NCBI GenBank assembly: GCA_963977445.1
Contig: CAXBPH010000144.1
Coordinates: 1-17,299, forward strand
Reading direction: 5' to 3'
Source: an uncultured bacterium
Lineage (GTDB): Bacteria; Hydrogenedentota; Hydrogenedentia; Hydrogenedentales; JAEUWI01
Length of the DNA stretch: 17,299 nt
How positions within the stretch are numbered: the first letter of the stretch is position 1; each line of letters starts with the position of its first letter. Both the position numbers and the translations under genes were made by a program. The notes under the pieces are model-generated. The model saw only the letters and a program-made list of their open reading frames with translations, was not told where the DNA came from and made no database searches. Positions 78-17,299 of the stretch are shown here, piece after piece.

Positions 78-1745
78 TTAAAATGCGAGTTCGCCACCAG
101 ACTTCTTCAGCTTCTTTTCGATACGCTCCAGGCGTTTTCGGAAGGCACGGGCTTCCGGGCGCTCCAGGCCTGCGCTGCCTTCGGAGGTGGCGTAGTGGGT
201 GAGGGCTTCGCGGCAAAGCTGGGCGGCGGCGACAAGATCGCGGGTGCGATGCTCGTGGTGTTTTGCGAGCTCATGACTCGCCACGGGGTCGCCGGGAAAG
301 CCTTCCAGCAGGGATTCCCAGGTTTGCTGCATTTCTTCCCAGCGTGCCCGACGTTTACAGGCGTAGCCGAGCATTTCCAGGCATTCCCGACACAGGGGGG
401 AGCCTTCGACCTCGTCGAGGAAGGCCTGGGCGTGGATTAGGACTTCGTCGTAGTTCTTTTGTCGAAAGTGAATGCGCACGACGGACAATTTGTCCTCGTG
501 GTGTTCGAAGCCTTGTCCGGGCGGTCCATCAAGGCATTGCGACATCCAGGCGGTCAGCGATACGAGGGACAGAATATCCATCTCGTGGTGGTAGATGACG
601 CCTTCCAGGGGACGGCCATCCTGTTGCTCCAGGTAATTAAACCAGAGTTGAGGAATGAGGTAACTGGGCACGTCGCCTTCGCGGTGGATGGCGAGAATCT
701 CCCGCTCGATGTTGCCCAGGCTGCAATCCTTGAGGCGCTTTTTCCAGAAACGTCGGGCAGCATGGACCAGATCGAGGTGCTTCAGGGCACCCTCGCGGAA
801 GGGGATGCGGTTTTGAATGAAGCGGGTGCGCAGTAGGGGCAGGTCGAAGCTCTTTCCGTTGTAGCTCACCAGTGTTTCATGCCTGTTGAAAAGTTCCGCG
901 AGATACTGGAGCATGGGCTCTTCGTCATCGAAGTCGCGCATGATGCACTGGTCCAGACGGAAGCTATCTTCCGTAAAATAGCCCACGCCCACGAGAAAGG
1001 CCACCGTACCCGTGCCGCCGGAAAGGCCCGTGGTTTCCGTGTCGATGAAACAGGCGGTGCGGGGATCGAAGTCTTCGAGCTCCGGGTCACAGGCAGAAAA
1101 AGCGATGTGTTTGGATTGGCTCTGAAGCACACTGCCCAGCGTGACGATGCCCTGTCGATGTTCCAGGGGGTAGTCGTGCCGAATGAGATAAAAACCGAAT
1201 TCGTCGTCGCCATGGATTTCACCGGGGACGACGCGTTCCAGTTTATAGGTACCCGCTTCCCGTTCTTCCTGGGTGATGAGCGGCTGGTCGGCGAAGAAGG
1301 ACTCAATGGTATGGTTCGGCGCGACGCTCAGCCGATCCGTCAAATCACGGAGTCGATTGGCCTTCGCAGGTTCCGGTGCGCTTGTCGGCTCCCGGCGGGG
1401 CTTACGTGGGGGCGGGGGATTGGTCGCCCGCTCGGTCCGCCAGTCAGAGCCCGTCTTGAGGCCTTTGCTTTGCAGGAGGTCGGCGAGTTTGCTGATGGTA
1501 GGCTTGGGTGAACTTGGGGCTTTATTCTCGACCTCGTCGAACCCGTCATCGGTATATTCTGGTTCGTCCTCCCAGGAATCTTCGGCGAGCTCGTGGTAGA
1601 CCGGTTCATCGGACTCGTGGGACGCGTGGGATTCGCTCGGAGCTTGGGCCCGCTCAGCTGGTTCTGCCGATGGCTTCAGGTTGGCGCCGGTGGTGAGACC
1701 GTGGAGGTCCCGGAGGGCGTCAAGTTTTTTCTTCATGTTACTCAT
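78..1745 (-). CDS. mrfB: YprB/MrfB-like DEDD (RNase H-like fold) exonuclease with C-terminal TPR-like helical region and long acidic/Pro-rich N-terminal extension
   Basis: 555-aa ORF with FIDTETTGL (ExoI), SYNGKSFDLP (ExoII), HLDL and YHHEMDILSL (ExoIII). The C-terminus has ELAKHHEHRTRD...AAQLC. It lies 54 bp downstream of a DUF1998-type helicase, matching the B. subtilis mrfAB (yprAB) order. The start could be ATG 1745 or ATG 1736. Confidence 0.85.
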   Translation of the reverse strand: MSNMKKKLDALRDLHGLTTGANLKPSAEPAERAQAPSESHASHESDEPVYHELAEDSWEDEPEYTDDGFDEVENKAPSSPKPTISKLADLLQSKGLKTGSDWRTERATNPPPPRKPRREPTSAPEPAKANRLRDLTDRLSVAPNHTIESFFADQPLITQEEREAGTYKLERVVPGEIHGDDEFGFYLIRHDYPLEHRQGIVTLGSVLQSQSKHIAFSACDPELEDFDPRTACFIDTETTGLSGGTGTVAFLVGVGYFTEDSFRLDQCIMRDFDDEEPMLQYLAELFNRHETLVSYNGKSFDLPLLRTRFIQNRIPFREGALKHLDLVHAARRFWKKRLKDCSLGNIEREILAIHREGDVPSYLIPQLWFNYLEQQDGRPLEGVIYHHEMDILSLVSLTAWMSQCLDGPPGQGFEHHEDKLSVVRIHFRQKNYDEVLIHAQAFLDEVEGSPLCRECLEMLGYACKRRARWEEMQQTWESLLEGFPGDPVASHELAKHHEHRTRDLVAAAQLCREALTHYATSEGSAGLERPEARAFRKRLERIEKKLKKSGGELAF

Positions 1746-1799
1746 GGGGTAGTTTATCAGATTCCTGTATACAGGTAGGGAGTTGGGTGAGCGGAGTCA

Positions 1800-4115
1800 T
1801 CAGGTGGCGTCCCCAATGGGGGGCAGGTCCGTTGGCGGGCGCTCAACGCCCAGCGCCAGGTTTACAAGCCGGAGCGCACCATCTTTACCGTGCATGCCGG
1901 TTTCCAGGACACTGCCGACACAACTGGGGCAGCCTTCCGCGCAGGGGCAGTCGGTGAGCAGGGAGGTTGCGGCCTCCAAGAGGCGATTATGGTGGTTGAA
2001 GAGTTTTTCGCTGATGCCCACGCCGCCGGGGTAACGCTCATAGAGGAAGATGGTGGGGGCTTCGGTGGCGGGGGCGCGGAGCATGGCCTGGGCGCGGATG
2101 TCACTCGGATCGCAGAGCACCTGCACCGGCGCGACTTGCTTGAGGGCATTGGCCAGGGCATTCAGGGCTTCGCCCACCTCTTCCTTGTCGACACCAAAGC
2201 GTTCGGCCGTATTTTCGGGGAATTCTATCCAATAGCCCGTGGTGTGCATGGTTTGTTCGGGCAAATGAATCTCGCCCCAGCCGACGTTTTCGTGGGTGCC
2301 AAATTTTATCTTCTTATAAATCGTGGGAAGCCAGGTGACGCTGAGTTCGCCGCAGCACCGCTCCGTGTCATTCTCGGGTTTGGACTCGAAAACATCCAGC
2401 ACCTTCAGGTCGACTTTGGTTTCGGCGTCCGTGTAGTAATCCACCTCCACGGGGCGTGCATAGGCCTTGCGGTCTTCCAGGTCGAGTTCATCGATGGTGT
2501 ATTGGGCGCTCTGGTGGAGATAGATGGCGTTTTGATAGACCTCAGTAGGCGCGGCGAAGAAATCGATTTCGCCAATCACCCGGCCATTGTCGGACGTATC
2601 CAGTATGACCACATTGCCCGGGGCCGCCGTACGCAGGCTGATGTCCGACGCGGGGTAGGTGTCGGCACTCCAATGCCACTTGTTGCGCACCTTACGGAGG
2701 ACCCGGTTGTCCACCAGATAGTCCAGGATTTCTCCGGTAGACGTGGGGTCAAGGCCGAACGACTCGCCTTCCACAAAAGGAATTTCAAAGGCCGCACATT
2801 TCAGATGGCTGGTGAGGATGATGAGATTGTTCGGGTCCACCGTGGCACTTTCCGGCGGCTGGTCAAAGAAATACTCGGGGTGGCCGATAATATATTGGTC
2901 GATGGGGGCACTGGTCGCTATAAGAACGACCAACGCGACCGTGTTACGACGCCCGGCCCTACCGGCCTGTTGCCATGTGCTGGCGACACTGCCCGCGTAG
3001 CCCGTCATGATGCACACATCCAACGCGCCAATATCGATGCCCAATTCCAGGGCATTGGTGCTCACCACCGTCATGACTTTGCCGTCCCGGAGCCCTTGCT
3101 CGATTTCGCGGCGCTCCGTGGGCAGATAGCCTCCCCGATAGCCCTTCACCAGATGGTGACTCTTGCCCATCTTCCGCACCGCCTCTTTAAGGTAGGTGGT
3201 GAGGATTTCCACCCGCAGTCGGCTCCGGGCGAACACGATGGACTGAATATTCTTGGACAGGAGAGACCGGGCGAGGCGGGCCGCTTCCTTGACGGAGGAG
3301 CGGCGGATGCCCAATTCCTGATTTACCACGGGGGGATTATAAAAGAGAAAGTGCTTTTCCCCGGCGGGGGCACCGTTGTTGTCGATGAGGGTGACTTTTT
3401 CCTCGATGATTCGCTCGGCGATTTCCTGAGGGTTGGCAATGGTGGCACTGCAGCAGATGAACTTCGGGTGGGAACCATAAAAGGCACAAATCCGCTTCAG
3501 GCGACGGACCACATTGGCCAGATGACTCCCAAAGACGCCGCGATAGTGGTGGATTTCATCGATGACGACGTATTCCAGATTCTCGAAGAGGCGGATCCAG
3601 ATGGTGTGGTGGGGGAGGATGCCCGAATGAAGCATGTCGGGATTGGTCACCACGATGTTGCCCGCACTCCGCACCGCCTTCCGCGCGGACGCCGGGGTAT
3701 CGCCATCAAAGGTGTAGGTGCCGATTTTGACCTCCATCTCCTCGATGGTGTCCTTCAGCTCATTCATCTGATCCTGCGAGAGGGCCTTCGTGGGGAAGAG
3801 ATAAAGTGCGCGGGCCTGGGGGTTCTCCAGCATGCGGTTGAGGACCGGCAGGTTGTAGCACATCGTCTTGCCCGAGGCCGTCGGCGTCACCACACAGGTA
3901 TGCTCTCCCGCGAGGGTGGCAGCGATGGCCTCCGCCTGATGGGTGTAGAGCTGCGACACGCCCCGTTTTTGCAAGGCCTCTTTCAGCTTGGGATGGAGGG
4001 CCTCTGGAAAAGGCGCATTTCGCGCCGGGCGGGGGGGGATGGTGTGCCACTTCGTGAGATTGCGACAAAAATCCGCATCCCCACGAAGGGTGTCTATGGT
4101 CTGGGCTACATTCAT
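1800..4115 (-). CDS. mrfA: YprA/MrfA/Hrq1-family DExH-box SF2 helicase with C-terminal Zn-binding (DUF1998-type) domain
   Basis: Motifs: LYTHQAEA (Q), TPTASGKT (I), FPTKALSQDQ (Ia), TNPDMLH, DEIH (II), SAT (III), STNALELGIDIG (V), QQAGRAGRR (VI) and C-terminal CPCAEGCPSC. I moved the start from 4226 to ATG 4115 (MNVAQTID..., 771 aa) because GAGGTG lies about 10 nt upstream and the promoter at 4151-4180 falls inside the longer ORF. Confidence 0.92.
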   Translation of the reverse strand: MNVAQTIDTLRGDADFCRNLTKWHTIPPRPARNAPFPEALHPKLKEALQKRGVSQLYTHQAEAIAATLAGEHTCVVTPTASGKTMCYNLPVLNRMLENPQARALYLFPTKALSQDQMNELKDTIEEMEVKIGTYTFDGDTPASARKAVRSAGNIVVTNPDMLHSGILPHHTIWIRLFENLEYVVIDEIHHYRGVFGSHLANVVRRLKRICAFYGSHPKFICCSATIANPQEIAERIIEEKVTLIDNNGAPAGEKHFLFYNPPVVNQELGIRRSSVKEAARLARSLLSKNIQSIVFARSRLRVEILTTYLKEAVRKMGKSHHLVKGYRGGYLPTERREIEQGLRDGKVMTVVSTNALELGIDIGALDVCIMTGYAGSVASTWQQAGRAGRRNTVALVVLIATSAPIDQYIIGHPEYFFDQPPESATVDPNNLIILTSHLKCAAFEIPFVEGESFGLDPTSTGEILDYLVDNRVLRKVRNKWHWSADTYPASDISLRTAAPGNVVILDTSDNGRVIGEIDFFAAPTEVYQNAIYLHQSAQYTIDELDLEDRKAYARPVEVDYYTDAETKVDLKVLDVFESKPENDTERCCGELSVTWLPTIYKKIKFGTHENVGWGEIHLPEQTMHTTGYWIEFPENTAERFGVDKEEVGEALNALANALKQVAPVQVLCDPSDIRAQAMLRAPATEAPTIFLYERYPGGVGISEKLFNHHNRLLEAATSLLTDCPCAEGCPSCVGSVLETGMHGKDGALRLVNLALGVERPPTDLPPIGDAT

Positions 4116-4146
4116 GGTCGGGGTACACCTCGAGCTTGTTGGTGAG

Positions 4147-4164
4147 ACTGAATATAGCATCAGT
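4147..4164. promoter_or_regulatory. Palindromic operator candidate ACTGA-N8-TCAGT overlapping the -10 element
   Basis: ACTGAATATAGCATCAGT has CTG-N10-CAG geometry with an AT-rich centre and covers the predicted -10 of a DNA-repair operon. Confidence 0.35.
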
Positions 4165-4180
4165 GGTGAGGGGTTGGCAA
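4151..4180 (-). promoter_or_regulatory. sigma70-type promoter for the mrfAB operon
   Basis: The minus strand reads TTGCCA (4180-4175), 18 nt, TATATT (4156-4151), with an extended -10 TGn (TGC). The -10 ends about 35 nt upstream of ATG 4115. Confidence 0.6.
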
Positions 4181-4923
4181 GGGGGGGGCATGGGGGCGTT
4201 GATTGGGGCGCGCCGTTGCATGTCACGATAGGTTAGAAAAGCGGATGGGGCCTTTCCCTACAGGGGTTGGTCATTCCTCGCTGACATTGCGCCCCCTTGA
4301 TCTTACGCAGGCCGATAGGCGTCCTGTAGATGCGGCGCTCACACGTTGTAGCGGTCAATAGAAAATTCCCGCTCACGCAGTGTCGACCAGGATGCGCGCA
4401 ACCCCGCTCAAAAACGCGTTCGCGGGCCCAATCACTCCTCGCTGCCCCCGGTATATCGAAGTCGCGTGTACCCTCCAATTTGCGCGCGAGGTATACCGCA
4501 GGGTGTGTCTACAACATCCCAGTGACTACAGAGAGTTGCTTGTAATAGAAGAAATAGAAAGATAACAGAAACATAGTAATAAAAAAAAGAGAAGTACAAA
4601 AAGTGAAATATCTTTTATTGTATTAATGGTGTACAGTAAGGCCTTGCTGGGAAGTCTAACCCGTTAGAATATCACCGCACATACTGTGTACTCGCGCCGT
4701 GTAGATAGCCGCTGAATCGTTCGGCTGCCCTGCAGCATGCCATTCGTTACGAGCGATGGTAACGGCTTACGGGAGTGAAGCCTGATTCTGCTCTCATTTC
4801 GTCTAATTCCACCGGTGCCGCGTGCACGACGCGACCCCACTTGACACCACACCTGCTCCCTATCGGAACCACGGATACCCCCGCAGCCAGTCGGTCGACT
4901 GACCGCAGGCAAAGGATTACCAC

Positions 4924-7900
4924 ATGAAGAATTTGCTTATTCTCGCACTCATAATCGGGGGGGTGTCGTTTTGTGAAAGCGCCCACGCCTTCAAAATTAT
5001 CAATAAGACCGACAGGAATATGCTTTATAGTGTTTCGCTGAAAAACGGGACATTGGCGCGCTCCAGGGCCACTATAGCGAAAGGTCGTGAATCAGACGTC
5101 CCTGTCCCGGAACTCGGTAGTACAGAACTCCTGGTAACAATCTATTCCCTGAATTCTGGGTATATATCTTTTCCAGTCCCAACCGGCGACTGGGAGACCA
5201 TAGTGCGTATGCCAGCGAACGGCTCTCTGGAGATTCTGCAACAAAATCGGTATCAGCTTTCGATCTACACATCACCGGATTACTACGCGATTTCCCATAC
5301 TGCCAACGGAAGTGGATACGAATCTTCGGGACCAAGCGGTCTCCTACTCGGGGCTTCGCCATCGATTAGACCCGAAGATCGCGACATCCGTTTTCTTGTT
5401 ACAGGTGATCCCCAGTACTGGGTTGACGACGATGAACCCGATGCAGCACCGATGGTCGTCTATGCCGACAAGGTCATGGCGAAAATGATTGAAATATTTC
5501 AAGATGACTGGCCCCATACCCGCGGAATGATAGTGACTGGTGACCTGACCCAAGATGGTGACGTGTGTTTTACGTGTAGCAATGACGAGGAAGAAAGGGT
5601 AGGGCTTTACACCAAATCTTTGGGTGGATTGAAACGATTCTTCTATGACGGTTGGGGAAATCATGACGAAGATGCTAAGGACGATCTAGCTCTTGCAATT
5701 AAAGGTAGAAACACGATGCTGACGAGTCGGCAGGAGACCCACTATTCCTGGGACTGGCACGATGTGCACTTCGTCCAGTTGAATCTGTATCCCGGTAATG
5801 ACGAAGACTTCGATGAAGATGGCATGCAAGGCGGACCGGCACCGGAAAACAGTCTTGATTTCCTGGTAAATGATTTGCGTAACAACGTAGGTGATAGTGA
5901 TCGTCCCGTGGTCCTAATCCATCACTACGGATTCGAGCCTTTCTCAATAGAAAGAGACAATGGTCAGTTTTGGTGGACGCGAACTCAGCGAGACACCTAC
6001 AAGGCTGCAATGGCCAACTACAATGTGATCGCCCTGTTCACCGGACACGCCCATGGTCACGACCAAATTTATTTCGCGCAAGACTGGCAAATTGAAGTTC
6101 CCGGATTTGGGACCAATGGAGGTGTACTACCAGGCAGCGGCTCTGTGACAGATTTCGTCGCCGCTTCCGCCCGAGGCGTGGTAAAAGGTAGCACTAACGC
6201 GGGGGGCGTGTTCCTGGATGTTGAAATCAATGGGAACGACGAAATGATCGTCACCCGAAGAGACGGGAATGGCATCGCACTTGACCCGTCTCCAACCATC
6301 GTCATGTTCCAGTCCGCGCCGGGACCCAACAGACCTCCGGTTGCCCGTATTGGTGGACCGTACGTCTTTAGCGAGGGCGATCAAATTACGTTGGATGCCA
6401 GCGCCTCTACGGATCCGGATAGAACTGATGCCTTGGAGTATCGCTGGAAGTTGTTGGGAGAGAACGATTGGCGGGCTTGGGGGGCAGAACCCGACTTATC
6501 ATTCGGTCCATTTCCAGATCAAATCAGTATCCATGTATTTCTTGAAGTTCGGGATTCGGGCGGCTTAACCCACGCCGATTCCACGATTGTGCGCATCGAG
6601 AACGTGGCACCGGCCATCACGGCCACCGGCACCATCGACGCACTCGGTCGGGCTACCGTTCAGGGAACCATCTCAGACCCGGGAGTAAATGACAACTTCG
6701 TTTTGGCCATTCACTGGGTCACTGACAGTGCTGGGCGATTGTACGCATACCCCGCCGGGACCATGACTTTCGCCGAAACGTTTACCTTGTCTCCTGACCG
6801 ACTAACCGGCTCCACCTATCCAATCCACCTCGTGCTTTTTGACAAAGATGGCGGCGAAGGAACATTGCTCATCGACGCCCCAGTGGCGCCGTCGCCGCCG
6901 ATTATCACGTTCGATTCCGAGGTTACGGCACAGACTTACGAATCGCTGATACCAGTGCGTATTACGTTCAACGAGATCGTGACCGGTTTCGACATAAGTG
7001 ACATCGTAGTAGAGAACGCCACAATAGGTAACTTTATCACTATAGAAGACGGAGTGGTGTACGATTTTGAATTGACGCCTCTGTCGTTCGGCTTGGTTCG
7101 CGCGTCGATCCCGGCTGGCTCGGTAGTCGACAACCGTGGTACGCCCAACGAGGAACAATCGCCATTTCAACGGCTGTACGGTGCCGATCCAATCGACATG
7201 GTTACGGACACCGATGAGGATGGACTTAGCGACAGTAGCGAGAATTACGTACACAATACAGATCCGCTCAATCCCGACAGTGACGACGACGGTTTTCTCG
7301 ATGGTTACGAGGTAACTGTTGGAAGCGACCCTAATATCGATGAGGGTACGCAGCTTGCGACCTATGTGGACGTGAACGCAGCGGGCGCCGGGAATGGCAC
7401 GACCTGGGCCGATGCCTTTACCTCGATTCAGGCGGGCATCGATGTGGCGGGCGAGGTCTGGGTGGCAGCGGGCACCTACCCGGAAGCGCTGACATTTCGG
7501 TCCGGCGTATCGGTCTACGGCGGATTTTCCGGCATGGAGACGGCGGAAAACCAGCGCGACCCGGTGGCCAATGTGACGACGGTGGACGCCACGGGAATTG
7601 CCAGCAGTACGGTGACCCTTATTGGATGCACGGAGACGCGGCTGGACGGCTTCACGGTCACGGGGGGCAGCGGCACGGAATTCGACGCTTTAACCAGGGT
7701 GGGTGGCGGAATCTATATGACGAGTGCAGATGCCTCGAACGTAGTGGCGAACTGCGCGATCAGTGGTAATTCCGCGAAGTTAGGCGGCGGACTGTATTTT
7801 GTTGGCAATTGTTCCCCGACTCTAGTGAACTGTATGATTAATGGAAATTCTGCGGGTTACGATTACGGCGGCGGGCTGTTTATTGAGTCTAATTCCTCCC

Positions 7901-10900
7901 CGACCCTGACGAATTGCACGATCAACGGCAATACGGCGGGATACGGCGGCGGGCTGTGGGTTTATGGCAATTGCTCCCCGACCCTGGCGAACTGCACGAT
8001 CAGCGGCAATTCCGCAAGTGGTGGCGGCGGAATGGAGCTTTACAATAACTGTTCCCCCAACCTGACGAACTGCACGATCAGCGGCAATACCGCAGATGTC
8101 GGCGGTGGGCTGTATATTATCGAGAATTCTAACCCGACGCTGACGAACTGCATCCTCGACGCCAACACCGGTCATGCGGTCTACAAATCCGATGTGACCA
8201 GCGATCCGATCGTGCGGAATTGCCTTTTTTCTGGAAATTCGGACGGCGATTATTACGATTTCGACACCACCTCGTCATTTACGGGTGCCGATGCCATCAA
8301 CAGCCTGGCGGATTCGCACGACAACATTGACGGCGACCCGTTTTTCGCCGATGCGGACGCGGGCGACTTCCACCTCCTGGCGGGCTCGCCGGCCATTGAT
8401 GCGGGCACCGCCACCGGCGCGCCTGATGTCGACTTTGAGGATGAGGCCCGGCCATTCAACGAAGTCTTCGATATGGGCGTGGACGAGTGGGTGGATTCGG
8501 ATGGCGACGGAATACCTGACTATCGCGATACCGACCACGATAATGATGGACTGAGCAATGACGATGAGACAACGGAATACCAAACCGACCCCCTCAATGC
8601 CGACAGCGATGGCGATGGCTTCGCTGACGGCTTCGAAGTATCCGCTGGAAGCGATCCCAATGAAGAAGCGTCTACACCGGGTACGGCGTATGTGGATCTA
8701 GACGCGACGGGCACCGGCGATGGCACGAACTGGGCCGATGCCTTTCCAACTATTCAGGAAGGCATTGATGCTTCTCTCGAGGTCTGGGTCGCGGCAGGCA
8801 CCTACCCGGAAGCACTGACGCTCCGGACGGGCGTATCGGTCTACGGTGGTTTTGCGGGCGGGGAGACTGCGGAAAGCCAGCGGGACCCTGTGGCCCATGT
8901 TTCGACAGTGGATGCCACGGGGATTGGCGGCAGTGTGGTGACGATCATTCAAACCACCAACACGCGTATTGACGGCTTTACGATCACGGGAGGTAGTGAC
9001 GATTCTGGAGATTTCTTCGGCGGAGGCATCCATATGGAGAATGGCTACGGGTCTAATGCCATAGCGAATTGCACGGTCACCGGTAACACTGCGTCTTTCG
9101 GCGGCGGCCTGTCTCTCATAAATACCTCGTCTCCAACGCTGACGAACTGCTCTATCAGCGGCAACACGGCAATCCTGGGTGGCGGGCTGGCCTTAATCGG
9201 TTCTTATCCTGTGCTCAAGAACTGCACGATAAGCGGAAATACGGCTGATACCCTGGGCGGCGGCGGACTCTCACTCACCTCCTCCTCCCCTACGCTGGTT
9301 AATTGTACGATCAGCGGGAATTCTGCGCCTAAGGGTGGGGGGCTTTGGATTTACGGTAGTTCTAACCCGACGTTGACGAACTGCATCTTGCATGACAACG
9401 CTGGACATGCGATATACGAAATTGAATTTCTGGGCTACAGCGGCGATCCGACCGTGCGGAATTGCCTTTTTTCTGGAAATTTGGACGGCGACTACTACGA
9501 TTTCGACACCGCCTCGTCATTGACGGGCGCCGAGGCAATCAACGGCTTGGCGGACTCGCTCAACTTCGAAAATATCGATGGCGACCCGCGGTTCGTCGAT
9601 GTGAGCGCGGGTGACTATCATCTCCAGGCGGGTTCCCCGGCCACCGATGCGGGCGCCTCTGACGGTGCACCGCCGCTGGATTTTGACGGCGAGCCCCGTC
9701 CCTTCTCCGGCTTCTTCGATATTGGTTCAGACGAGTGGGTTGATACGGATGGCGACGGAGTGCCGGATTACATCGATACCGACAGTGACAACGATGGGCT
9801 GAGCAATGAGGATGAGATAAACGTATTTGGAACCGACCCCCTCAGTGCAGACAGCGATGATGACGATTTCTCGGATGGATTCGAAGTGGCCGCTGGAAGT
9901 GATCCGAATGAAAAGCCCTCTACACCGAGTGCGGCGTATGTGGACATAAACGCGACAGGCGCCGACAATGGCACGAGCTGGGCTGATGCCTTTCCGACAA
10001 TTCAGGAAGGCATCGACGCTGCTCCCGAAGTATGGGTCGCGGCAGGCACCTATGGTGAGGCGCTAACGCTCCGATCGCGGGTATCGGTTTACGGCGGATT
10101 TTTCGGAACCGAGACGGCGCTTGGCGAACGCGACCCCGGTACCAACGTAACGACGCTGGATGCCACGGATCTTGACAGCAGCGCCGTCACGATTATTGAA
10201 ACCACCGAAACGCGCATTGACGGCTTCACCATCACGGGAGGCAGTGGGAACGAAGATGAAGCCGGTAATGCGCTCGGAGGTGGCATATTTATGCGAAGCG
10301 CAGACGCCTCGAACATTATGGCAAACTGCTGGATTGGCGATAATGTGGCGGCTAGCGGGGGCGGACTCATTCTGATATTCAGCAACCCAACGCTGATGAA
10401 CTGCACAATTAGCGACAATACGGCACTTGAGTTTTCTGGCGGCGGTCTCTATCTTTACGAATCTTCCCCGACAGTGGCGAACTGCACCTTCAGCGGTAAT
10501 ACGGCGGTCAGTAGCGGCGGCGGGCTGATGCTTCATCTCAATTCCTCCCCGACCCTGACGAACTGTACGATCAGTGGCAACTCCGCACCTTACGGCGGTG
10601 GCCTTGAGCTTTACTCCACCTGTGCCCCGGCGCTGACGAACTGTACGATTAGTGGGAATTTCGCGGACTACGGCGGTGGGCTGGATCTTGACCTTGATTC
10701 AGACCCGACGCTCACGAACTGCATCTTGCATGATAACGCTGGGCACGCGTTGTACGAATACGACGTCGATAGCGATCCGCTTGTGTCGTTTTGTCTGCTT
10801 TATGGCAACCTCGATGGTGATTTCTATGACGCGAAGAGCACGATGACCTTGGTAGGTGCCGATGCTATTAATGGTCTCGCGGACTCGGGCAATATCGCGA

Positions 10901-11565
10901 ATGTCGATGGCGACCCGCTGTTCCTTGATGCGGACGCGGGTGACTATCACCTCCAGGCAGGATCCGCCGCTATTGACGCGGGCACCGATACGGGCGCACC
11001 GGAAGTAGACTTTGACGGTGAGGAACGCCCCTTCAACGACTTATTCGATATCGGAGCGGACGAGCGGGTGTATTTGGATGGGGGCGAAGGAGAAGGAGAA
11101 GGAGAAGGCGAAGGCGAAGGCGAAGGCGAAGGCGAAGGCGAAGGCGAAGGTGAAGGTGAAGGTGAAGGCGAAGGTGAAGGCGAAGGTGAAGGCGAAGGCG
11201 AAGGCGAAGGAGAAGGAGAAGCGGAGTTGGTTATGATTGCAGAGGACTTAATCGAATCCTTTGGAATGGCAGATGTAGATTCAGATGGAAAGCTGTCAAT
11301 TCTCGAAGCGCAGTCTCTGTTGGGTGGATTGACTCAGGTACAGTTTGAAGCGCTCGATAAGGATAAGGATGGCTTTTTGACCCAGGCAGAACTCTCCGCT
11401 CAGGTTGTCGCTGGTGAAGGTGAGGGTGAGGGTGAGGGTGAGTCGGGATGTTCTGTCTCCTCAAAAAGTGTTGAGAAGGGTGTTCGCGACCACTTCGGCG
11501 ACCTGTTTTCGCTCGTTATGGCCCTCATCGTAATGTCCGGAATTCGGCGCTTCGGTGGTCGATAA
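4924..11565 (+). CDS. Large secreted/cell-surface protein (2213 aa): signal peptide, calcineurin-like metallophosphoesterase, PKD/Ig-like domains, 3x [TSP3-like + right-handed beta-helix] modules, (GE)n linkers, EF-hand pair, C-terminal Cys/hydrophobic/Arg tail
   Basis: SD AAAGGA at 4911-4916. Signal peptide MKNLLILALIIGGVSFCESAHA (AxA site). Phosphoesterase motifs GDPQ, GDLT, GNHD, HH and GHAH (about 5400-6055). PKD-like NRPPVARIGGPY...LDASASTDPD (about 6330-6600). Ig-like RITFNEIVTGFDISDI (about 6900-7180). DxDxDG repeats, GGG-x-NCTISGN rungs, and EF-hand-like loops DVDSDGKLSILE and DKDKDGFLTQAE. Confidence 0.9.
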   Translation: MKNLLILALIIGGVSFCESAHAFKIINKTDRNMLYSVSLKNGTLARSRATIAKGRESDVPVPELGSTELLVTIYSLNSGYISFPVPTGDWETIVRMPANGSLEILQQNRYQLSIYTSPDYYAISHTANGSGYESSGPSGLLLGASPSIRPEDRDIRFLVTGDPQYWVDDDEPDAAPMVVYADKVMAKMIEIFQDDWPHTRGMIVTGDLTQDGDVCFTCSNDEEERVGLYTKSLGGLKRFFYDGWGNHDEDAKDDLALAIKGRNTMLTSRQETHYSWDWHDVHFVQLNLYPGNDEDFDEDGMQGGPAPENSLDFLVNDLRNNVGDSDRPVVLIHHYGFEPFSIERDNGQFWWTRTQRDTYKAAMANYNVIALFTGHAHGHDQIYFAQDWQIEVPGFGTNGGVLPGSGSVTDFVAASARGVVKGSTNAGGVFLDVEINGNDEMIVTRRDGNGIALDPSPTIVMFQSAPGPNRPPVARIGGPYVFSEGDQITLDASASTDPDRTDALEYRWKLLGENDWRAWGAEPDLSFGPFPDQISIHVFLEVRDSGGLTHADSTIVRIENVAPAITATGTIDALGRATVQGTISDPGVNDNFVLAIHWVTDSAGRLYAYPAGTMTFAETFTLSPDRLTGSTYPIHLVLFDKDGGEGTLLIDAPVAPSPPIITFDSEVTAQTYESLIPVRITFNEIVTGFDISDIVVENATIGNFITIEDGVVYDFELTPLSFGLVRASIPAGSVVDNRGTPNEEQSPFQRLYGADPIDMVTDTDEDGLSDSSENYVHNTDPLNPDSDDDGFLDGYEVTVGSDPNIDEGTQLATYVDVNAAGAGNGTTWADAFTSIQAGIDVAGEVWVAAGTYPEALTFRSGVSVYGGFSGMETAENQRDPVANVTTVDATGIASSTVTLIGCTETRLDGFTVTGGSGTEFDALTRVGGGIYMTSADASNVVANCAISGNSAKLGGGLYFVGNCSPTLVNCMINGNSAGYDYGGGLFIESNSSPTLTNCTINGNTAGYGGGLWVYGNCSPTLANCTISGNSASGGGGMELYNNCSPNLTNCTISGNTADVGGGLYIIENSNPTLTNCILDANTGHAVYKSDVTSDPIVRNCLFSGNSDGDYYDFDTTSSFTGADAINSLADSHDNIDGDPFFADADAGDFHLLAGSPAIDAGTATGAPDVDFEDEARPFNEVFDMGVDEWVDSDGDGIPDYRDTDHDNDGLSNDDETTEYQTDPLNADSDGDGFADGFEVSAGSDPNEEASTPGTAYVDLDATGTGDGTNWADAFPTIQEGIDASLEVWVAAGTYPEALTLRTGVSVYGGFAGGETAESQRDPVAHVSTVDATGIGGSVVTIIQTTNTRIDGFTITGGSDDSGDFFGGGIHMENGYGSNAIANCTVTGNTASFGGGLSLINTSSPTLTNCSISGNTAILGGGLALIGSYPVLKNCTISGNTADTLGGGGLSLTSSSPTLVNCTISGNSAPKGGGLWIYGSSNPTLTNCILHDNAGHAIYEIEFLGYSGDPTVRNCLFSGNLDGDYYDFDTASSLTGAEAINGLADSLNFENIDGDPRFVDVSAGDYHLQAGSPATDAGASDGAPPLDFDGEPRPFSGFFDIGSDEWVDTDGDGVPDYIDTDSDNDGLSNEDEINVFGTDPLSADSDDDDFSDGFEVAAGSDPNEKPSTPSAAYVDINATGADNGTSWADAFPTIQEGIDAAPEVWVAAGTYGEALTLRSRVSVYGGFFGTETALGERDPGTNVTTLDATDLDSSAVTIIETTETRIDGFTITGGSGNEDEAGNALGGGIFMRSADASNIMANCWIGDNVAASGGGLILIFSNPTLMNCTISDNTALEFSGGGLYLYESSPTVANCTFSGNTAVSSGGGLMLHLNSSPTLTNCTISGNSAPYGGGLELYSTCAPALTNCTISGNFADYGGGLDLDLDSDPTLTNCILHDNAGHALYEYDVDSDPLVSFCLLYGNLDGDFYDAKSTMTLVGADAINGLADSGNIANVDGDPLFLDADAGDYHLQAGSAAIDAGTDTGAPEVDFDGEERPFNDLFDIGADERVYLDGGEGEGEGEGEGEGEGEGEGEGEGEGEGEGEGEGEGEGEGEGEGEGEAELVMIAEDLIESFGMADVDSDGKLSILEAQSLLGGLTQVQFEALDKDKDGFLTQAELSAQVVAGEGEGEGEGESGCSVSSKSVEKGVRDHFGDLFSLVMALIVMSGIRRFGGR
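7207..11070 (+). repeat. Three tandem intragenic modules of about 1.25-1.33 kb (about 7207-8490, 8494-9738, 9742-11070)
   Basis: Each module runs D.D.DG...TDPL..DSD.D.F.DG.EV..GSDPN, YVD..A.G...GT.WADAF..IQ.GID, EVWVAAGTY, beta-helix rungs, then D.HL.AGS.A.DAG...RPF...FD.G.DE. DNA near-identity is visible, e.g. gtgcggaattgccttttttctggaaat at 8212 and 9454. Confidence 0.92.
11083..11220 (+). repeat. Hexanucleotide repeat (GGN GAA)23 encoding (Gly-Glu)23
   Basis: 23 units of GGC/GGA/GGT-GAA read directly. A second (GE)5 tract at 11413-11442 mostly uses GGT GAG. Confidence 0.97.
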
Positions 11566-11706
11566 AACAAAACATCGTGTAGGCCGGCCGATGGCCAGTG
11601 GAAACTCGGCACCAGATGCTCCGTATTTAGGACGGCCTTGGTGATTTTGCGCTACAGGCTGGGGTAGGGGTAGACTGGATGGGTCTTGGCGTAGACCGCC
11701 ATTGAT

Positions 11707-11739
11707 GGAAGGGCCGTCGGCTTAACCGGCGCTTTTTCC
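11707..11739 (+). terminator. Possible intrinsic terminator downstream of the large surface-protein gene
   Basis: ggaagggc-cgtcgg-cttaa-ccggcg-ctttttcc: an imperfect GC stem followed by a T5 run, about 140 nt after stop 11565. Confidence 0.35.
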
Positions 11740-11825
11740 GATTGTCGAACAGCGCGAACTATGCATGTCACGACTTCTATACACGACGTCGATCAATCCC
11801 ACACCTCATTTGCAGGAGTATTACG

Positions 11826-12599
11826 GTGACCAAATCCTTGGAAAAGAAAAACTATCTCATTGATATGGACGGCGTGCTTGTTCGGGGACAAGTGCCTATT
11901 CCAGGGGCGATAGAGTTTGTCGAGCGACTGCGCGACGGTGACTTCAAGTTTATGGTGCTTACGAACAACCCGCTATACACCCCCCGGGACCTTTCCTATC
12001 GATTGCGCGCTACCGGTTTGGAGATCGAGCCCGAACGTATCTATACGTCGGCCATGGCAACGGCCCAATTCCTGAACCTGCAAAAAGCGGAGGGGACGGC
12101 CTATGTCGTCGGTGAAAGCGGTCTTACCCATGCCATACACGATGCGGGGTATGTTATCACCGACAGAAATCCGGACTATGTGATCCTGGGCGAAACCCAC
12201 GCCTACAGTATCGACCAAATAACCGTTGCCATTCGCCTGGTCGCGGCAGGCGCCCATTTTATCGCGACGAATCCCGACAAATCAGGTCCCTCAGAATTCG
12301 GGATTGTCCCAGCATGTGGAGCCATGGCGGCCCTCATCTCACAGGCCTCTGGTCGTCACCCCTTGTTCATCGGAAAACCCAATCCCCTGATGATGCGTCT
12401 GGCCCTCAATCACCTCGGTGTTCACTCCGAAAACACCATCATGATCGGCGACAATATGGAGACCGACATCATCGCCGGCGTGCAATCGGGCCTGGGTACG
12501 ATTCTCGTGTTAAGCGGCATCACAGACCGGGAAAAACTGCGAGAATATCCCTATCAGCCCACCCGTATAATCGATTCGGTGGCCGATCTTAACCCGTGA
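11826..12599 (+). CDS. nagD: HAD-superfamily subfamily IIA hydrolase (NagD-like nucleotide monophosphatase)
   Basis: Motif I DMDGVL, motif II TNN, motif III GKPNP, motif IV GDNMETD, plus ATNPD and PACG. The start is placed at GTG 11826, with AGGAG at 11814-11818, rather than TTG 11742. Confidence 0.9.
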
Positions 12600-12663
12600 A
12601 CCCGTCCGGCGCTCGAGCAGTTGGCAGTCTGAGGCATGGTGCCTATACTCCCAAAGATAGATA

Positions 12664-14501
12664 GTGGATATGTCTGGACGGTCTCTGCGACTTCGTCGGG
12701 CGGTCCGTGTCGACTATGATCTGGACTACTGGATTTGGACGCCCATCGACGGCATCGTTCCCGGAGCGACGGCAACGGAATTGGCAAAGAATGAAGCCTT
12801 GTTTCAACAGCTTCCACGGCTAGATGCCATATTTGTTCCAGGCGGCGACCCGGGAAACAACGAGCCCGAAGATGTGATGGACTATCTCGCCCAATTGAGC
12901 ACGCTACTTCGCACCTATTTCCGCGATGCGGAAATGTGGGTATCGAATCAGGGCTTCGAACACGAACAGAACGACACGTTTTTTGACTATCTGGATAATG
13001 AGGCACCCACCTGGCTCACCGGCGTAGTCTTCGGCCCCTGGACGAAGCTCTCCATTCAGGAAGAGCGTCAATGGACGCCCAGTCAGTATCCCATTCGCCG
13101 CTACCCCGATATTACCCACAATCTCCGCAGCCAATTCCCCCAAGAGAATTTCGATCGGCCCTTTGCCCACCTTCTGGGTCGCGAAGCTATTGATCCCCGA
13201 CCGGTCGCCAGTGTGACCATTCACGACCTCCACGCACCCAGCACCATTGGCTATCTCGCCTATTCTGACGGCATTCACGACGATGTGAATAAAAACATCT
13301 GGAGCATGCGTTCCTGGGCCAGTGACATGACGGTCGATACGATGCTCCAGGAATACAGCCGATTTTTCTTTGGCCCGGAAGTGGCCACCGATCCGAAAGA
13401 TGGCATTCTGGCGCTGGAAGACAACTGGATGCACCCGGCGCTCACCACCACGGGCGTCGACGACACCTTTGCCATGTGGCAGCTACTGGAGTCCGAACCA
13501 ACGGATCTGTCGGACAATTGGCGGTGAAAATTGAATCTGGTTCACGCCTACTACGATGCCTATGTGCGCCAGAAGACCATCGACGAAGCGGAATACGAGC
13601 ATGAAGCCTACGCCCAGTTGGTCGACGCGTCGAAAATCAGTTTGACGTGGTGGCCGGTATGGGAACCGAAGGCGCTAAGCGGGCCCATCTGGCGTCACCG
13701 GGCCAGGAATATTTCCGGCATAACCTGGACTACGACCGGGAGGACAAAGGCGGTGGTCGACTTTCCTGGCAGGACCAGGCCTATACCTTATTTAACGAGC
13801 CCCTTTATATGGCATACGAGGGACTCGATCCGGTGGCGGGTTACGAATTGCAGGGTACCTACGCGGGGCGTTTCAACCACACCATGACTTGTACTGCCGA
13901 CGGGACCTATCAGATTCATGGCGAAGTGGGCACCCAGATATATCCACCACGGACCTTTGACATTCCTCAGGGGGCAACTGCCGATGGTGCTCTTGAACTT
14001 CAGTGGGATTTGGTAACGGGGCGGGGCTGTCAGCTTGCCGAAGTCTGGCTCAAAGTACGCGATACGGATGGCGACGGCGTAAGTGATGAAAACGATAGCG
14101 ACGACGATAACGATGGAATTCTGGACGAGAATGACACGTATCCCCAGGATGCCGATAACGATGGCGTGACTAATTTTGATGATGACGACAACGATGGCGA
14201 CGGTATTTTTGATTTAGCGGAACTGGATGGTGGATCCGATCCGCTCGATCCCAATGATCCCGTGGCAGGTGGCGAAGGCGAAGGCGAAGGTGAAGGTGAA
14301 GGTGAAGGTGAAGGTGAAGGTGAAGGTGAAGGTGAAGGTGAAGGCGAAGGTGAAGGCGAAGGTAGTTCCGATGGGTCCGGTTGTACGCCTTCGTTAAAGT
14401 CATTGGGCGCGGACGCAGATAGGGTATTGGCGGACTTGTTCTTGTTGGGTATGTCACTGGTCGTTTTGCTGAGTTCTACACGGCTGCCGCGAAGGCCCTA
14501 G
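12664..14501 (+). pseudogene. Disrupted gene for a surface-anchored protein of unknown (possibly glycoside hydrolase-like) family with TSP3-like repeats, (GE)15 and the C-terminal Cys tail
   Basis: Three consecutive ORF pieces. 12664-13527 has no signal peptide or clear SD. After an in-frame TGA (13525-13527) the same frame continues coding-like (KLNLVHAYYDAYVRQ...). A frame switch near 13635-13660 leads into the frame ending at TAG 14501, which carries DTDGDG repeats, (GE)15 and the tail. Motifs FVPGGDPG, YPIRRYPDITH and YSDGIHDDVNK resemble, from memory, a family of longer uncharacterised proteins. Confidence 0.7.
14271..14360 (+). repeat. (GGY GAA)15 repeat encoding (Gly-Glu)15
   Basis: 15 units of GGC/GGT-GAA read directly. 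Confidence 0.97.
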
Positions 14502-15062
14502 GAGTCAGACTCCTGGCATAGCGCTACCTGGTAGCAAGTGCGGGCAGGTCCTCCATGGGACCATCGAGGCGTACAGCGTCGCGTTGGGCCGTCGGTGAGC
14601 GCGGGGATCTCCGTGCGTAGCGCGTTCAGGTCTGCGGGGCAGGCCCTGAACCTGCGCGCTCGGCTGAGGTTATAAATTTGAGCCTCTGTTGGCCCCCCAT
14701 CCCACCCGAATGCCCTGAGTATCATGTAGCTTTCCGCAGATAAAAGTTGCGGATTTTGTCGGGTTATGCTACATAGAACGTTGTACACCAAATTGCAACG
14801 GCCCTTCTGCGTGGCAGACCTGTCCCTCCGGACCGCGCGCCAGGCGGAATCATTTGCATATTGAGCCATGCCATTTCAGTGGCCTTTCGTCGTGGTAAAT
14901 CGTGGAATCCGGAGATAATCCTACGGATAAGTAGGTATCTTGCCGTCTAGCGTACCATATGGTATTCAATTGGCCGGTTGTCAGGCCTCGCGTCGCACAA
15001 GCCAGCGTCGCTAAGTCTTTTTGCTGTAATCGTTAACGAATTTCTAACGGGTTGTGCTTCTG

Positions 15063-15079: not shown

Positions 15080-15141
15080 AACTAGTGGGAACATTCTGGA
15101 AGTACTTTAACCCTCAACAAAACAGGCGCAATGGAGAAATT

Positions 15142-17299
15142 ATGAGCGGGAACGCGGTACGGCTTGAAGCCATCTCAGAAATTATAAATCAGCAACCAGT
15201 CGCGACGACTGTCCCTTTCACTGAGCTCTCCACGAGCGATATCTTCGGTGAAAACGTCTTCAGTCTTTCGGTCATGCAGAAACGACTGCCAAGGGACACC
15301 TACAAGTCCTTGAAGAAAACCATCGAGTCCGGCATGAAGCTCGATCCCGGTACGGCCAATCTAGTCGCCTCCGAAATGAAATCCTGGGCCCTTGAGCGGG
15401 GCGCGACCCACTACGCCCACGTTTTCTATCCCCTTACCGGTCTGACGGCAGAGAAGCACGACTCCTTCTACACGCCCGACGGTAAAGGTGGCACCTTGGC
15501 GGAATTCGAAGGCAAGACCCTCGTTCAGGGCGAGCCCGACGGCTCCTCCTTCCCCAACGGCGGCATTCGTCAGACTTTCGAAGCCCGTGGTTACACCATT
15601 TGGGACGTAACCAGCCCGGCCTATATCCTTGAAAACCCCAACGGAACCACCCTGTGTATTCCGACGGCCTTCGTTTCCTGGACCGGCGAAGCACTGGACA
15701 AGAAGACGCCGGTACTGCGTTCCATGCAGGCGTTGAACGCGCATGCACAGCGCGTTCTTAAGTTTTTCGGCACGGATGGTGCCTTTGTGGCCTCCACGGC
15801 AGGCGCAGAGCAGGAATATTTCCTCATCGACAAAAACTTTTTCTATGCACGCCCCGACCTCTTGAATGCAGGCCGCACGCTCTTCGGTGCTGCGCCCCCC
15901 AAGGGTCAGGAATTCGACGACCACTATTTCGGCGCGATTCCGGAGCGTGTGCTCGCGTATATGTTCGAAACGGAACGCGAATGCTTCAAACTGGGTATCC
16001 CCGTAAAGACCCGCCACAACGAAGTGGCCCCGGGCCAGTATGAAATTGCACCCGTATTCGAATACTCGAACGTCGCTACGGACCACCAGCAGCTCGTCAT
16101 GGTTACCTTGAAGAAGGTTGCTGAAAAGTATGGTATGGTCTGTCTGATGCACGAGAAGCCCTTCGCCGGTGTGAACGGCTCCGGTAAACACCTGAACTAC
16201 TCCATGGGTTCCGCGGACGCAGGTAACATGTTCGATCCCGGTGATACGCCTTCCGAAAACGCGCAGTTCATTGTATTCTGTGCGGCAATGATTCGGGCCG
16301 TCTACAAGTGGTCCCCCTTGCTTCGTTCCGTGGTGGCCAGTGCCTCCAACGACCACCGTCTTGGTGCCAACGAAGCGCCCCCGGCCATCCTTTCCATCTT
16401 CCTGGGCGACGAGTTGACCGAGGTCATTGAATCGATTGCTACGGGCAAGCCCATCAAGTCCAGAAAGAGTGTGATGCACGTAGGTGCGGATGTTCTTCCG
16501 GGGATTCCACGTGATTCAGGCGACCGGAACCGTACCAGTCCCATGGCCTTCACCGGTAACCGTTTTGAGTTCCGTGCCGTAGGTTCCAACCAGTCCATTG
16601 CTGGTCCGTTGGTTGCAATGAATACGATTATGGCGGAAGCATTGGATTTTTGCGCCACCAAATTGGAAGCCGCCGACACCAGCAGCCCCGAGAAACTCGG
16701 TACGGCCGTGGAAGCACTGGTAAAAGAAATCTATACGGAATGCAAGTCGATCGTCTTCAATGGCGATGGGTATTCTGACGACTGGCAAGTAGAAGCGGCT
16801 AAACGCGGTCTTCCGAATCTGAAGACTACCGCAGATGCCCTTCCCGCGTTGAAGGACAAGGCCGTACAGGATCTCTTCGAGAAGTATGACGTGCTCAGCG
16901 CTCGTGAAACAGAAAGCCGCTACGAAGTCTATGCGGAACAGTACGTCATGAGCATCAACGTCGAATCCAATCTCATGCTTGAGATTGCCAAGACCATGAT
17001 CTTCCCTGCGGCGATTCGCTATCAGGGTGAGCTGGCCACGAGCCTGGCAAATCTGAAGGAAGTTGGCATCGAAACCGATTCCGATACCCTTAAGTACATC
17101 ACGGGGCTGATTGCCACCATGCAGAGCGCAATCAAGGTCCTCACGGAGGCCAAAATTGCAGCGCCCCATGAGCCGGAAGAAGCCTGCAACTACTGCCGGG
17201 ACACGATCATTCCTGCAATGATTGAGCTCCGTACGGTTGCCGACAAGCTGGAAGACATCGTCGCCGATGATCTTTGGCCCCTGCCGACCTACCAGGAAA
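15142..17299 (+). CDS. glnN: Glutamine synthetase type III (3'-partial, runs off the window edge)
   Basis: Missing from the ORF track because there is no stop in the window. SD GGAG at 15133-36, ATG 15142 ([11 protein letters not shown]...). GSIII motifs: [111 protein letters not shown]. It ends [11 protein letters not shown] after 719 codons, near the usual GSIII C-terminus. Confidence 0.96.

Follow-up and report, generated by a model that had tools for sequence, protein, structure and literature searches.

A candidate cysteine-containing C-terminal sorting signal on exported proteins of Hydrogenedentota

C-terminal sorting signals determine which proteins a bacterium shows on its surface. 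The stretch of DNA analysed here (the window) is 17,299 nucleotides long and is the entire contig C144 (CAXBPH010000144.1) of an assembly from an uncultured bacterium of the phylum Hydrogenedentota (GCA_963977445.1; G000, hereafter the source genome), which comprises 7.1 Mb in 464 contigs and is 94% complete. Two genes in the window end in closely similar tails, in which a Cys is followed by a spacer, an Asp, a hydrophobic helix and a basic end, and a preliminary description of the window had proposed that this tail is a novel, lineage-specific sorting signal shared by two unrelated surface proteins. Genomes, contigs, families and genera are labelled G, C, f and g respectively, all within the Hydrogenedentota set.

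Tail-bearing genes in the window

Translation of positions 11413-11568 and 14340-14504 on the forward strand gave exactly the two tails that had been described, each with a (Gly-Glu)n tract before it and a stop codon after it. The tail of the first protein (protein 1; 11443..11562, plus strand, hidden Markov model (HMM) E 1e-13 to 5e-17) starts with S-G-C, with the Cys codon at 11449-11451, and continues with a 16-residue spacer (11452-11499), an Asp (11500-11502), a hydrophobic helix (11503-11544) and the basic end RRFGGR (11545-11562). The tail of 'protein 2' (14376..14498, plus strand, HMM E 2e-13 to 3e-15) has the same parts, namely S-G-C with the Cys codon at 14382-14384, the spacer (14385-14432), the Asp (14433-14435), the helix (14436-14477) and the basic end TRLPRRP (14478-14498). 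From S-G-C on the two align without gaps and are identical at 15/40 positions. The Asp follows the Cys at a distance of 17 residues in each tail, and the Cys itself stands 37 or 38 residues from the end, so that the arrangement first reported was reproduced by translation and alignment in every respect.

The gene for protein 1 (4924..11565, plus strand) was delimited from the open reading frame list together with Pfam and NCBIfam, and encodes a giant exported protein of 2213 amino acids (aa). It opens with a signal-peptide-like segment of 22 residues (4924..4989, plus strand) that has a hydrophobic core and ends in A-H-A; this and all other signal peptides were called by eye from the translations, without a predictor. 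About 460 residues follow before the first recognised domain, and residues 1-460 had no match in Pfam, NCBIfam or PDB (phmmer against PDB returned nothing for the N-terminal 492 residues). Pfam and NCBIfam then place a PKD and a Big_12 domain, followed by three blocks of TSP3, right-handed beta-helix and choice-of-anchor Q, with five TSP3 repeats, three beta-helix blocks and three choice-of-anchor Q domains in all. Choice-of-anchor is the NCBIfam name for domains found on proteins with alternative sorting signals. After the last block come a long (Gly-Glu)23 linker (11083..11220, plus strand, seen in the translation), an EF-hand-like pair of calcium loops just upstream of the tail (11272..11394, plus strand; weak matches to EF-hand_7 and EF-hand_6 in Pfam and to LanM in NCBIfam), a short (Gly-Glu)5 linker (11413..11442, plus strand, also from the translation) and the tail itself. 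Protein 1 is an intact client of the tail.

The gene for 'protein 2' (12664..14501, plus strand) lies in three frame pieces (12661-13527, 13528-13887 and 13605-14501), which were recognised by comparing the frames with an intact orthologue of 1247 aa in the complete genome of a member of the same genus (G008:C1, locus L147, 1018-4758, minus strand). The orthologue bears the tail and is built of a signal peptide, a PKD domain, a large unassigned region, a (Gly-Glu)n tract, a second PKD domain, a further (Gly-Glu)n tract, an EF-hand pair and the tail; a phmmer search of PDB with it found PKD domains only. Its residues 343-655 align with window positions 12703-13641 at 66% identity. The window gene is thus without its first ~342 codons, which correspond to the signal peptide and the PKD domain, and there is no space for them because a HAD hydrolase gene ends at 12599. 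An in-frame TGA (13525..13527, plus strand) stands where the orthologue has Trp, and beyond ~13640 about 170 codons are gone and reading resumes in another frame (13605-14501), which contains a (Gly-Glu)15 linker (14271..14360, plus strand, read from the translation) ahead of the tail. The 5' truncation, the stop codon, the deletion and the frame change mark it as a decaying paralogue in which the tail is still perfectly readable, and 'protein 2' is thus a decayed client gene. Of the two surface proteins with different enzymatic cargo that had been proposed, protein 1 therefore stands and 'protein 2' does not, being a remnant that lacks a signal peptide. The cargo domain of this remnant (window 12664-13527), which has no Pfam or PDB match and stays unassigned, belongs to a large paralogous family, with 13 matches in G008 and 9 in G004, mostly in open frames of ~730-990 aa.

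Copies of the tail within the genome

For searching, the source genome was divided into 74,953 stop-to-stop frames with a minimum length of 50 aa, which are not gene calls, and the identical frames in reverse served as the control for the HMM searches. An HMM built from the two window tails alone matched five further frames at E ≤ 1e-3 and ten at E ≤ 0.1, all of them no more than 12 residues from the frame end, and none of the reversed frames at E ≤ 0.1, which places the family beyond chance. Iteration from seven motif-picked seeds gave 21 strong members (E ≤ 3e-9) and two weaker ones (on C169 and C308). Two alignments were made: A1, of 22 own-genome tails, and A2, a combined alignment of 50 tails which includes those of A1 and tails from five more distant genomes. 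The A2 profile matched 22 own-genome frames and no reversed frame at E ≤ 1e-3, and every one of the 22 matches ends no more than 12 residues short of the frame end. This last scan is not independent, because its 22 tails sit in the profile; the independent evidence comes from the two-tail HMM and the iterated seed searches. The source genome thus has at least 22-23 copies of the tail, each closing its reading frame, and hundreds more are found in relatives, so the tail extends well beyond the two genes in which it was noticed.

In A1 the Cys is the sole invariant column, while conservation reaches at least 90% for the Asp and for the Gly that precedes the Cys. In A2 the Cys is invariant in 50/50 tails, and this Gly and the Asp again reach at least 90%. 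The Cys-to-Asp distance is 17 in 12/22 own-genome tails.

A (Gly-Glu)n tract of at least three units precedes the tail in 14/23 own-genome frames, and an EF-hand-like loop pair does so in 8/23. The linkers are encoded by near-perfect 6-base DNA repeats (on C10, C84, C110, C154, C280, C292, C308 and others, and in the window at 11083-11220 and 14271-14360). Contig ends cut 13/23 of the tail frames, mostly inside the (Gly-Glu)n tract, which indicates that these repeats fragment the assembly and hide the N-termini of clients, and the true tail count may be higher as a result. Six of the nine frames left uncut open with a signal-peptide-like segment; the three that do not comprise 'protein 2', a C9 frame read from its first ATG and a remnant of 81 aa on C22.

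Distribution, consensus and predicted structure

The profile of the own-genome tails was searched against 41 relatives, the set also used for most of the enzyme candidates below, and matched 24 of them, including all eight genomes of genus g1. The A2 profile was searched against 135 genomes of the phylum and matched 62, distributed as f1 12/14, f10 5/6, f11 23/23, f13 8/10, f3 3/14 and f5 5/54. Genomes of the same genus as the source genome have 12-34 tail matches each, although such genome-level matches are not copy numbers. With 62/135 genomes positive, mainly in four families, the tail is patchy rather than phylum-wide at this sensitivity, which is bounded by the fact that absence was judged with a profile trained on four families.

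Against a library of 1.84 billion representative proteins, the A2 profile gave 199 matches at E ≤ 1e-3, and the best 150 of these were checked for position and Cys. All 150 end 0-12 residues from the C-terminus, as do the matches in the source genome, and the Cys is present in 149/150, the exception being a 35-aa fragment. The expectations that hits would be C-terminal and that the Cys would be conserved among paralogous tails were therefore borne out. The last Cys and the Asp are 15-18 residues apart in 125/146 parsed library tails, with a mode of 16, and one, two and three Cys are found in 42, 60 and 41 tails respectively. The carriers that have NCBI names are all Candidatus Hydrogenedentota, Hydrogenedentes or Hydrogenedens (4/10 clusters checked; 5/24 listed proteins), so that among named records the tail is confined to Candidatus Hydrogenedentota, in line with the lineage specificity first suggested. 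The names themselves describe the cargo only (PASTA, PKD, WD40 or hypothetical), and the cargo is diverse, with beta-helix proteins carrying choice-of-anchor Q, PASTA, PKD, leucine-rich repeat (LRR), WD40 and lectin-type domains.

The consensus is ~40 residues long and reads G-C(-x-C)n, K-S, a spacer, G-D-L-F-L, ~14 hydrophobic residues and a Lys/Arg cluster. In the five more distant genomes it often takes the form GCGC or GCGCGC, then K-S-D-F-[ST]-P-x-G-L-K-x-R-L-G-D-L-F-L, the helix and R-R-R, and these tails are mostly preceded by an EF-hand-like D-x-[DN]-x-D-G loop. An EF-hand-like module also precedes the tail in many library matches, and the f11 tails have GCGC or GCGCGC motifs. In G008 a 45-kb island (G008:C1:3356798-3401998; loci L148-L150) contains nine tail genes (525-2956 aa), all on one strand. 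Among them lie genes for an ADP-ribosylglycohydrolase, a membrane acyltransferase of the Acyl_transf_3 type and an LRR protein of 1267 aa that ends in EF-hands.

AlphaFold2, applied to the A2 alignment with a 46-residue tail, predicted that tail residues 13-44 form one unbroken helix, which starts four residues beyond the Cys and runs to the basic end. The mean predicted local distance difference test score was 76 for the tail, with block means of 55, 64, 87, 96 and 80, and confidence in the spacer was only moderate. Given that a single helix is predicted, the spacer may work as a helical ruler from Cys to Asp.

Relationship to known C-terminal signals

The tails were compared with the C-terminal signal (CTERM) models of NCBIfam 20.0 and with Pfam, in searches where the HMMER filters discard most matches above E ~0.1. 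Hmmscan with the whole proteins and both window tails returned no CTERM match. The 22 own-genome tails gave sub-threshold matches only, one tail each to LPXTG (E 0.025), VPDSG (E 0.19), JDVT (E 2.1) and the Pfam PEP-CTERM model PF07589 (E 0.057). Among the 96 shortest of the 150 best library matches, no CTERM model was matched except VPDSG (2/96, E 0.013, below the cut-off), and none was significant in seven further tail proteins. The novelty claimed for the tail was upheld to this extent, as no named CTERM model was significant on the 22, 96 and seven tails. Among the papers listed by full-text searches of literature outside subscription journals, none was found that links Hydrogenedentota to a C-terminal sorting signal. 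Judged by its sequence, the tail appears to fall outside each of the catalogued signals tried, the closest known kind being MYXO-CTERM or JDVT-CTERM.

Like MYXO-CTERM (TIGR03901), the tail is a three-part C-terminal signal with a Cys motif that is often GCGC, a membrane helix and an Arg-rich end, and in both, each genome has dozens of unrelated exported clients whose genes lie apart from the enzyme gene. The tail differs in having 12-17 conserved charged residues (K-S ... L-K-x-R-L), probably helical, and in the Asp between Cys and helix. The helix region of MYXO-CTERM is described as free of charged and Pro residues, with the Cys motif directly before the helix (10.1101/2023.06.07.544157). 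MrtX, a CPBP protease, has been shown to cleave MYXO-CTERM in a Cys-dependent manner, and lipidation and type II secretion are predicted for the clients (PMC11980579; 10.1101/2023.06.07.544157). Furthermore, the MYXO-CTERM of Myxococcota and Bradymonadales (MrtX/MrtC/MrtP) belongs to another phylum, and the myxosortase core NF040914 was not found in the source genome.

It could be supposed that the tail is nevertheless a divergent MYXO-CTERM outside the Myxococcota, served by a divergent myxosortase. The GCGC and GCGCGC motifs of f11, the hydrophobic helix and the Arg cluster would suit this, and one Joint Genome Institute (JGI) record among the 24 listed (P0177) is named 'MYXO-CTERM domain-containing protein'. 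We regard it as highly improbable: TIGR03901 had no match among the 22 tails or the seven further proteins at E ≤ 10, nor among the 96 library proteins at E ≤ 0.1; NCBIfam 20.0 gives the JGI-named protein no TIGR03901 match either; the absence of NF040914 is as just noted; and the Lys/Arg-rich spacer with its conserved Asp is at odds with the charge-free helix region described for MYXO-CTERM (10.1101/2023.06.07.544157).

With JDVT-CTERM (NF033191, MrtJ) the tail shares an invariant Cys and an Asp motif at a fixed distance downstream, in or at the start of the helix. In JDVT-CTERM, an Asp-Pro lies 9 residues after a single Cys and there is about one client per genome with an adjoining CPBP protease, whereas in the tail a Leu, Phe, Ile or Met comes after the Asp, which stands at +16/17, and the source genome has 22-23 clients. 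On the CPBP proteins of the source genome the MrtJ model reached at most 22.5 bits, against a cut-off of 75. GlyGly-CTERM likewise has three parts and a C-terminal position, and an intramembrane protease (rhombosortase) removes it from clients that are type II-secreted, but the tails have no Gly-Gly motif and no match to its model, and the two rhomboids of the source genome score 40 and 28 bits against a rhombosortase (TIGR03902) cut-off of 84. PEP-CTERM resembles the tail in that an acidic residue opens a Gly/Leu-rich helix with basic residues after it, and in its large number of clients, and both signals occur in the source genome; the Cys tails are without Pro-Glu-Pro, however, and the VPEP tails of the source genome, at least 18 in number, form a separate set.

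Proposed function and candidate enzymes

Taking these results together, it is probable, if some way from certain, that the tail is a genuine C-terminal domain, absent from the catalogues, which exported proteins of Hydrogenedentota carry, and that it most likely serves as a Cys-type surface-sorting signal, predicted to be cut by a membrane protease after modification of the Cys. The N-terminal signal peptide would carry the protein over the inner membrane by Sec export, and the C-terminal helix would retain it there with its basic end in the cytoplasm. The Cys would then be modified, probably with lipid, an intramembrane protease would cut off the helix, and the protein would be handed to the cell surface, possibly by way of one of seven secretin-type systems. 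The enzyme would recognise its substrates by the near-fixed distance of 16-17 residues from Cys to Asp and by the conserved Asp with which the helix starts. The source genome has two Omp85/BamA matches and seven secretin-domain genes, and so has an outer membrane, which surface proteins have to get across. Two C-terminal sorting signals are found together in this genome (at least 18 PEP-CTERM and 22-23 Cys tails), along with an unusually large number of secretin systems.

Several results weigh against this reading, most of them to do with the enzyme. Modification of the Cys, cleavage of the tail and surface location are all presumed from the likeness to MYXO-CTERM and myxosortase, and the spacer of the Hydrogenedentota tail, Lys/Arg-rich and often with Pro, is unlike that signal. 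Weak relatives of the tail were found in two of the three f5 genomes searched (G089 and G095; loci L184-L198; E 0.003-5), where eight C-terminal tails end in ...G-D-[LIM]-L-L, the helix and R-R-R-R; the third f5 genome and one f3 genome gave no tail match at E ≤ 5. An upstream Cys is present in 5/8 of these relatives and missing from 3/8, and for this reason the Cys may not play the key part in every tail. The Gly-Asp entry to the helix could be an older, more general part of the signal.

The source genome encodes three exosortase-family proteins (on C52, XrtA-like and above the 8TM_EpsH cut-off; on C62, 531 aa and atypical; on C48, with an XrtH-like C-terminal domain), five CPBP proteins (on C442, fused to an ABC permease, and on C86, C152, C32 and C142) and two rhomboids (on C45 and C19). 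None of these reaches the cut-off of a named sorting-enzyme model. A six-frame search of the 94% complete genome with NF040914 gave no match at E ≤ 0.01, and none of the five CPBP proteins matched the MrtX, MrtC or MrtP models at E ≤ 1e-3. The preliminary description had looked to co-occurrence with CPBP, rhomboid or exosortase genes to identify the enzyme, and this failed to appear: seven candidates were profiled and none tracks the tail, in single-protein searches that may overlook fast-evolving CPBP orthologues. The C62 exosortase is present in 10/41 relatives, among them G010, which has one marginal tail match, and the tail-less G015, and was not found in G002, G004 and G005, which have 18, 24 and 12 tail matches. 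The XrtH-like exosortase of C48 occurs in 39/41 relatives, tail-bearing or not. The small CPBP at C86:15420-16097 is found in g1 (8/8) and g4 (1/1), was not found in the tail-rich f11 or in genus g23 of f10, and has clear orthologues in three tail-less f3 genera. The rhomboid at C45:21986-22888 is universal (39/41), and that of C19 occurs in 14/41 relatives, uncorrelated with the tail.

One CPBP clade, represented in the source genome by C32:30714-31703, is common to six tail-rich genomes (G000, G008, G004, G032, G024 and G056; 34-59% identity). Its profile (A3), searched like A2 against the 135 genomes, matched 119 of them, and 83/86 of those of high quality. Where the tail is present, the clade is present in 59 genomes and absent from three (G046, G064 and G071, of which G046 is 82% and G064 79% complete); where the tail is absent, it is present in 60 and absent from 13, nine of them in f3. 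Among the genomes with at least five tail matches it is found in 32/34, the two misses being 82% and 79% complete. The clade is a weak best candidate for the enzyme, since this pattern is compatible with its being necessary and is far from specific, and the genomes are not independent. It is a single-copy gene in an operon of GNAT acetyltransferase, CPBP, ABC ATPase and membrane protein (G000:C32:30151-33628; G008:C1:3789525-3793811), which holds no hint of sorting. No NCBIfam model matched the clade at its cut-off, and a word-index search for relatives returned 11 proteins only.

The genes around the tails were equally silent on a protease. There is none inside the 45-kb island of G008 with its nine tail genes, and among five loci from genomes with few tails, a CPBP gene lies nearby only in G118, 3 kb downstream, and has no blastp homologue in the source genome. 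The lack of a cognate protease by co-occurrence or neighbourhood would fit a tail that is a plain, permanent inner-membrane anchor and is never cleaved, with the (Gly-Glu)n or EF-hand region as a stalk, the cargo in the periplasm and the Cys serving for a disulfide, metal or oligomerisation. The AlphaFold2 helix, which runs uninterrupted from spacer to basic end, agrees with this, and an acidic linker with calcium loops would suit a stalk. Such an anchor would not, however, need an invariant Gly-Cys, K-S, G-D-L-F and a spacing of 16-17 residues kept nearly fixed across families; the carriers include choice-of-anchor domains; an outer membrane is present; and beta-helix or LRR cargo of 2,000-3,000 aa fits surface display better than the periplasm. 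Conservation in and just before a membrane helix is, moreover, Haft's mark of a substrate of an intramembrane enzyme (10.1101/2023.06.07.544157). A permanent anchor is thus considered unlikely.

An exosortase could also be the processing enzyme, with G-D-L-F in the role of P-E-P, the Cys as an accessory and cleavage by an exosortase paralogue such as the XrtH-like protein of C48:25725-26690. The acidic start of the helix followed by Leu or Phe, the Gly-rich helix and the Arg cluster do resemble PEP-CTERM, none of the three exosortase-family genes of the source genome reaches a named subtype cut-off, the one exosortase-family gene of G024, which has 10 tails, is XrtH-like, and the f5 tails keep the G-D even where the Cys is missing. 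Set against this, the XrtA-like enzyme of C52 is accounted for by the canonical VPEP tails in which at least 18 other frames of the source genome end, the XrtH-like gene is present in the tail-less G027 and was not found in the tail-rich G004 (95% complete), and the PEP-CTERM models PF07589 and TIGR02595 match only the one tail of 22 given above. In the catalogue, all four invariant-Cys signals are assigned to CPBP proteases and not to exosortases (10.1101/2023.06.07.544157). The 531-aa exosortase of C62 in turn shares its contig with a variant VPEPEEW tail, and we think the exosortase explanation quite unlikely.

The C62 exosortase (G000:C62:14912-16504) has only weak likeness to XrtT, XrtQ and XrtN, and the variant tail on the same contig, of the form VPEPEEW-helix-KTQRKK, closes a frame of 895 aa. 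The two may be a dedicated pair of enzyme and client.

Within the sorting-signal interpretation, which remains the one preferred here, Hydrogenedentota could have a sorting system of their own. Its signal would have two sites, a Gly-Cys for modification and a Gly-Asp for cleavage or recognition, 16-17 residues apart on a helix at the membrane surface, and would be read by an enzyme outside the catalogued subfamilies, because myxosortase, MrtJ- or MrtS-type CPBP proteases, rhombosortase and a named exosortase type are neither present nor co-distributed with the tail. This proposal is tentative, and we see it as a realistic possibility that falls short of probable.

Other genes in the window

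Upstream of protein 1, on the minus strand, the window encodes a DEAD/DEAH helicase with an MrfA Zn-binding (MZB) domain (1800-4226) and, after it, an RNase_H_2 or PolB-exonuclease-like protein with TPR (78-1745). The pair (78-4226) resembles the MrfA-MrfB repair pair of Bacillus, the second protein being a putative MrfB counterpart. At the other end lies a gene for a type III glutamine synthetase (15085-17298), which shares 72-74% identity with genes from Planctomycetota and from marine Alphaproteobacteria (Roseibium, Labrenzia), with only one closer chromosome, at 87% identity. This conserved enzyme is therefore a poor guide to taxon here, and its gene may have been exchanged between phyla.

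Implications

Hydrogenedentota are described as a widespread and little-understood phylum (PMC11406978). The definition of a new signal allows a whole surface proteome to be marked at once and points to a housekeeping sorting enzyme, and the 50-sequence alignment A2 is a starting point for a curated HMM. The tail would be the fifth Cys-bearing signal beside the four described by Haft, and its long conserved spacer and Asp could help to reveal what processing enzymes read. If the interpretation is true, the tail would label, in several Hydrogenedentota families, ~10-35 giant proteins per genome, adhesin-like and enzyme-like, whose present names are just 'PASTA/PKD domain-containing' or 'hypothetical'.

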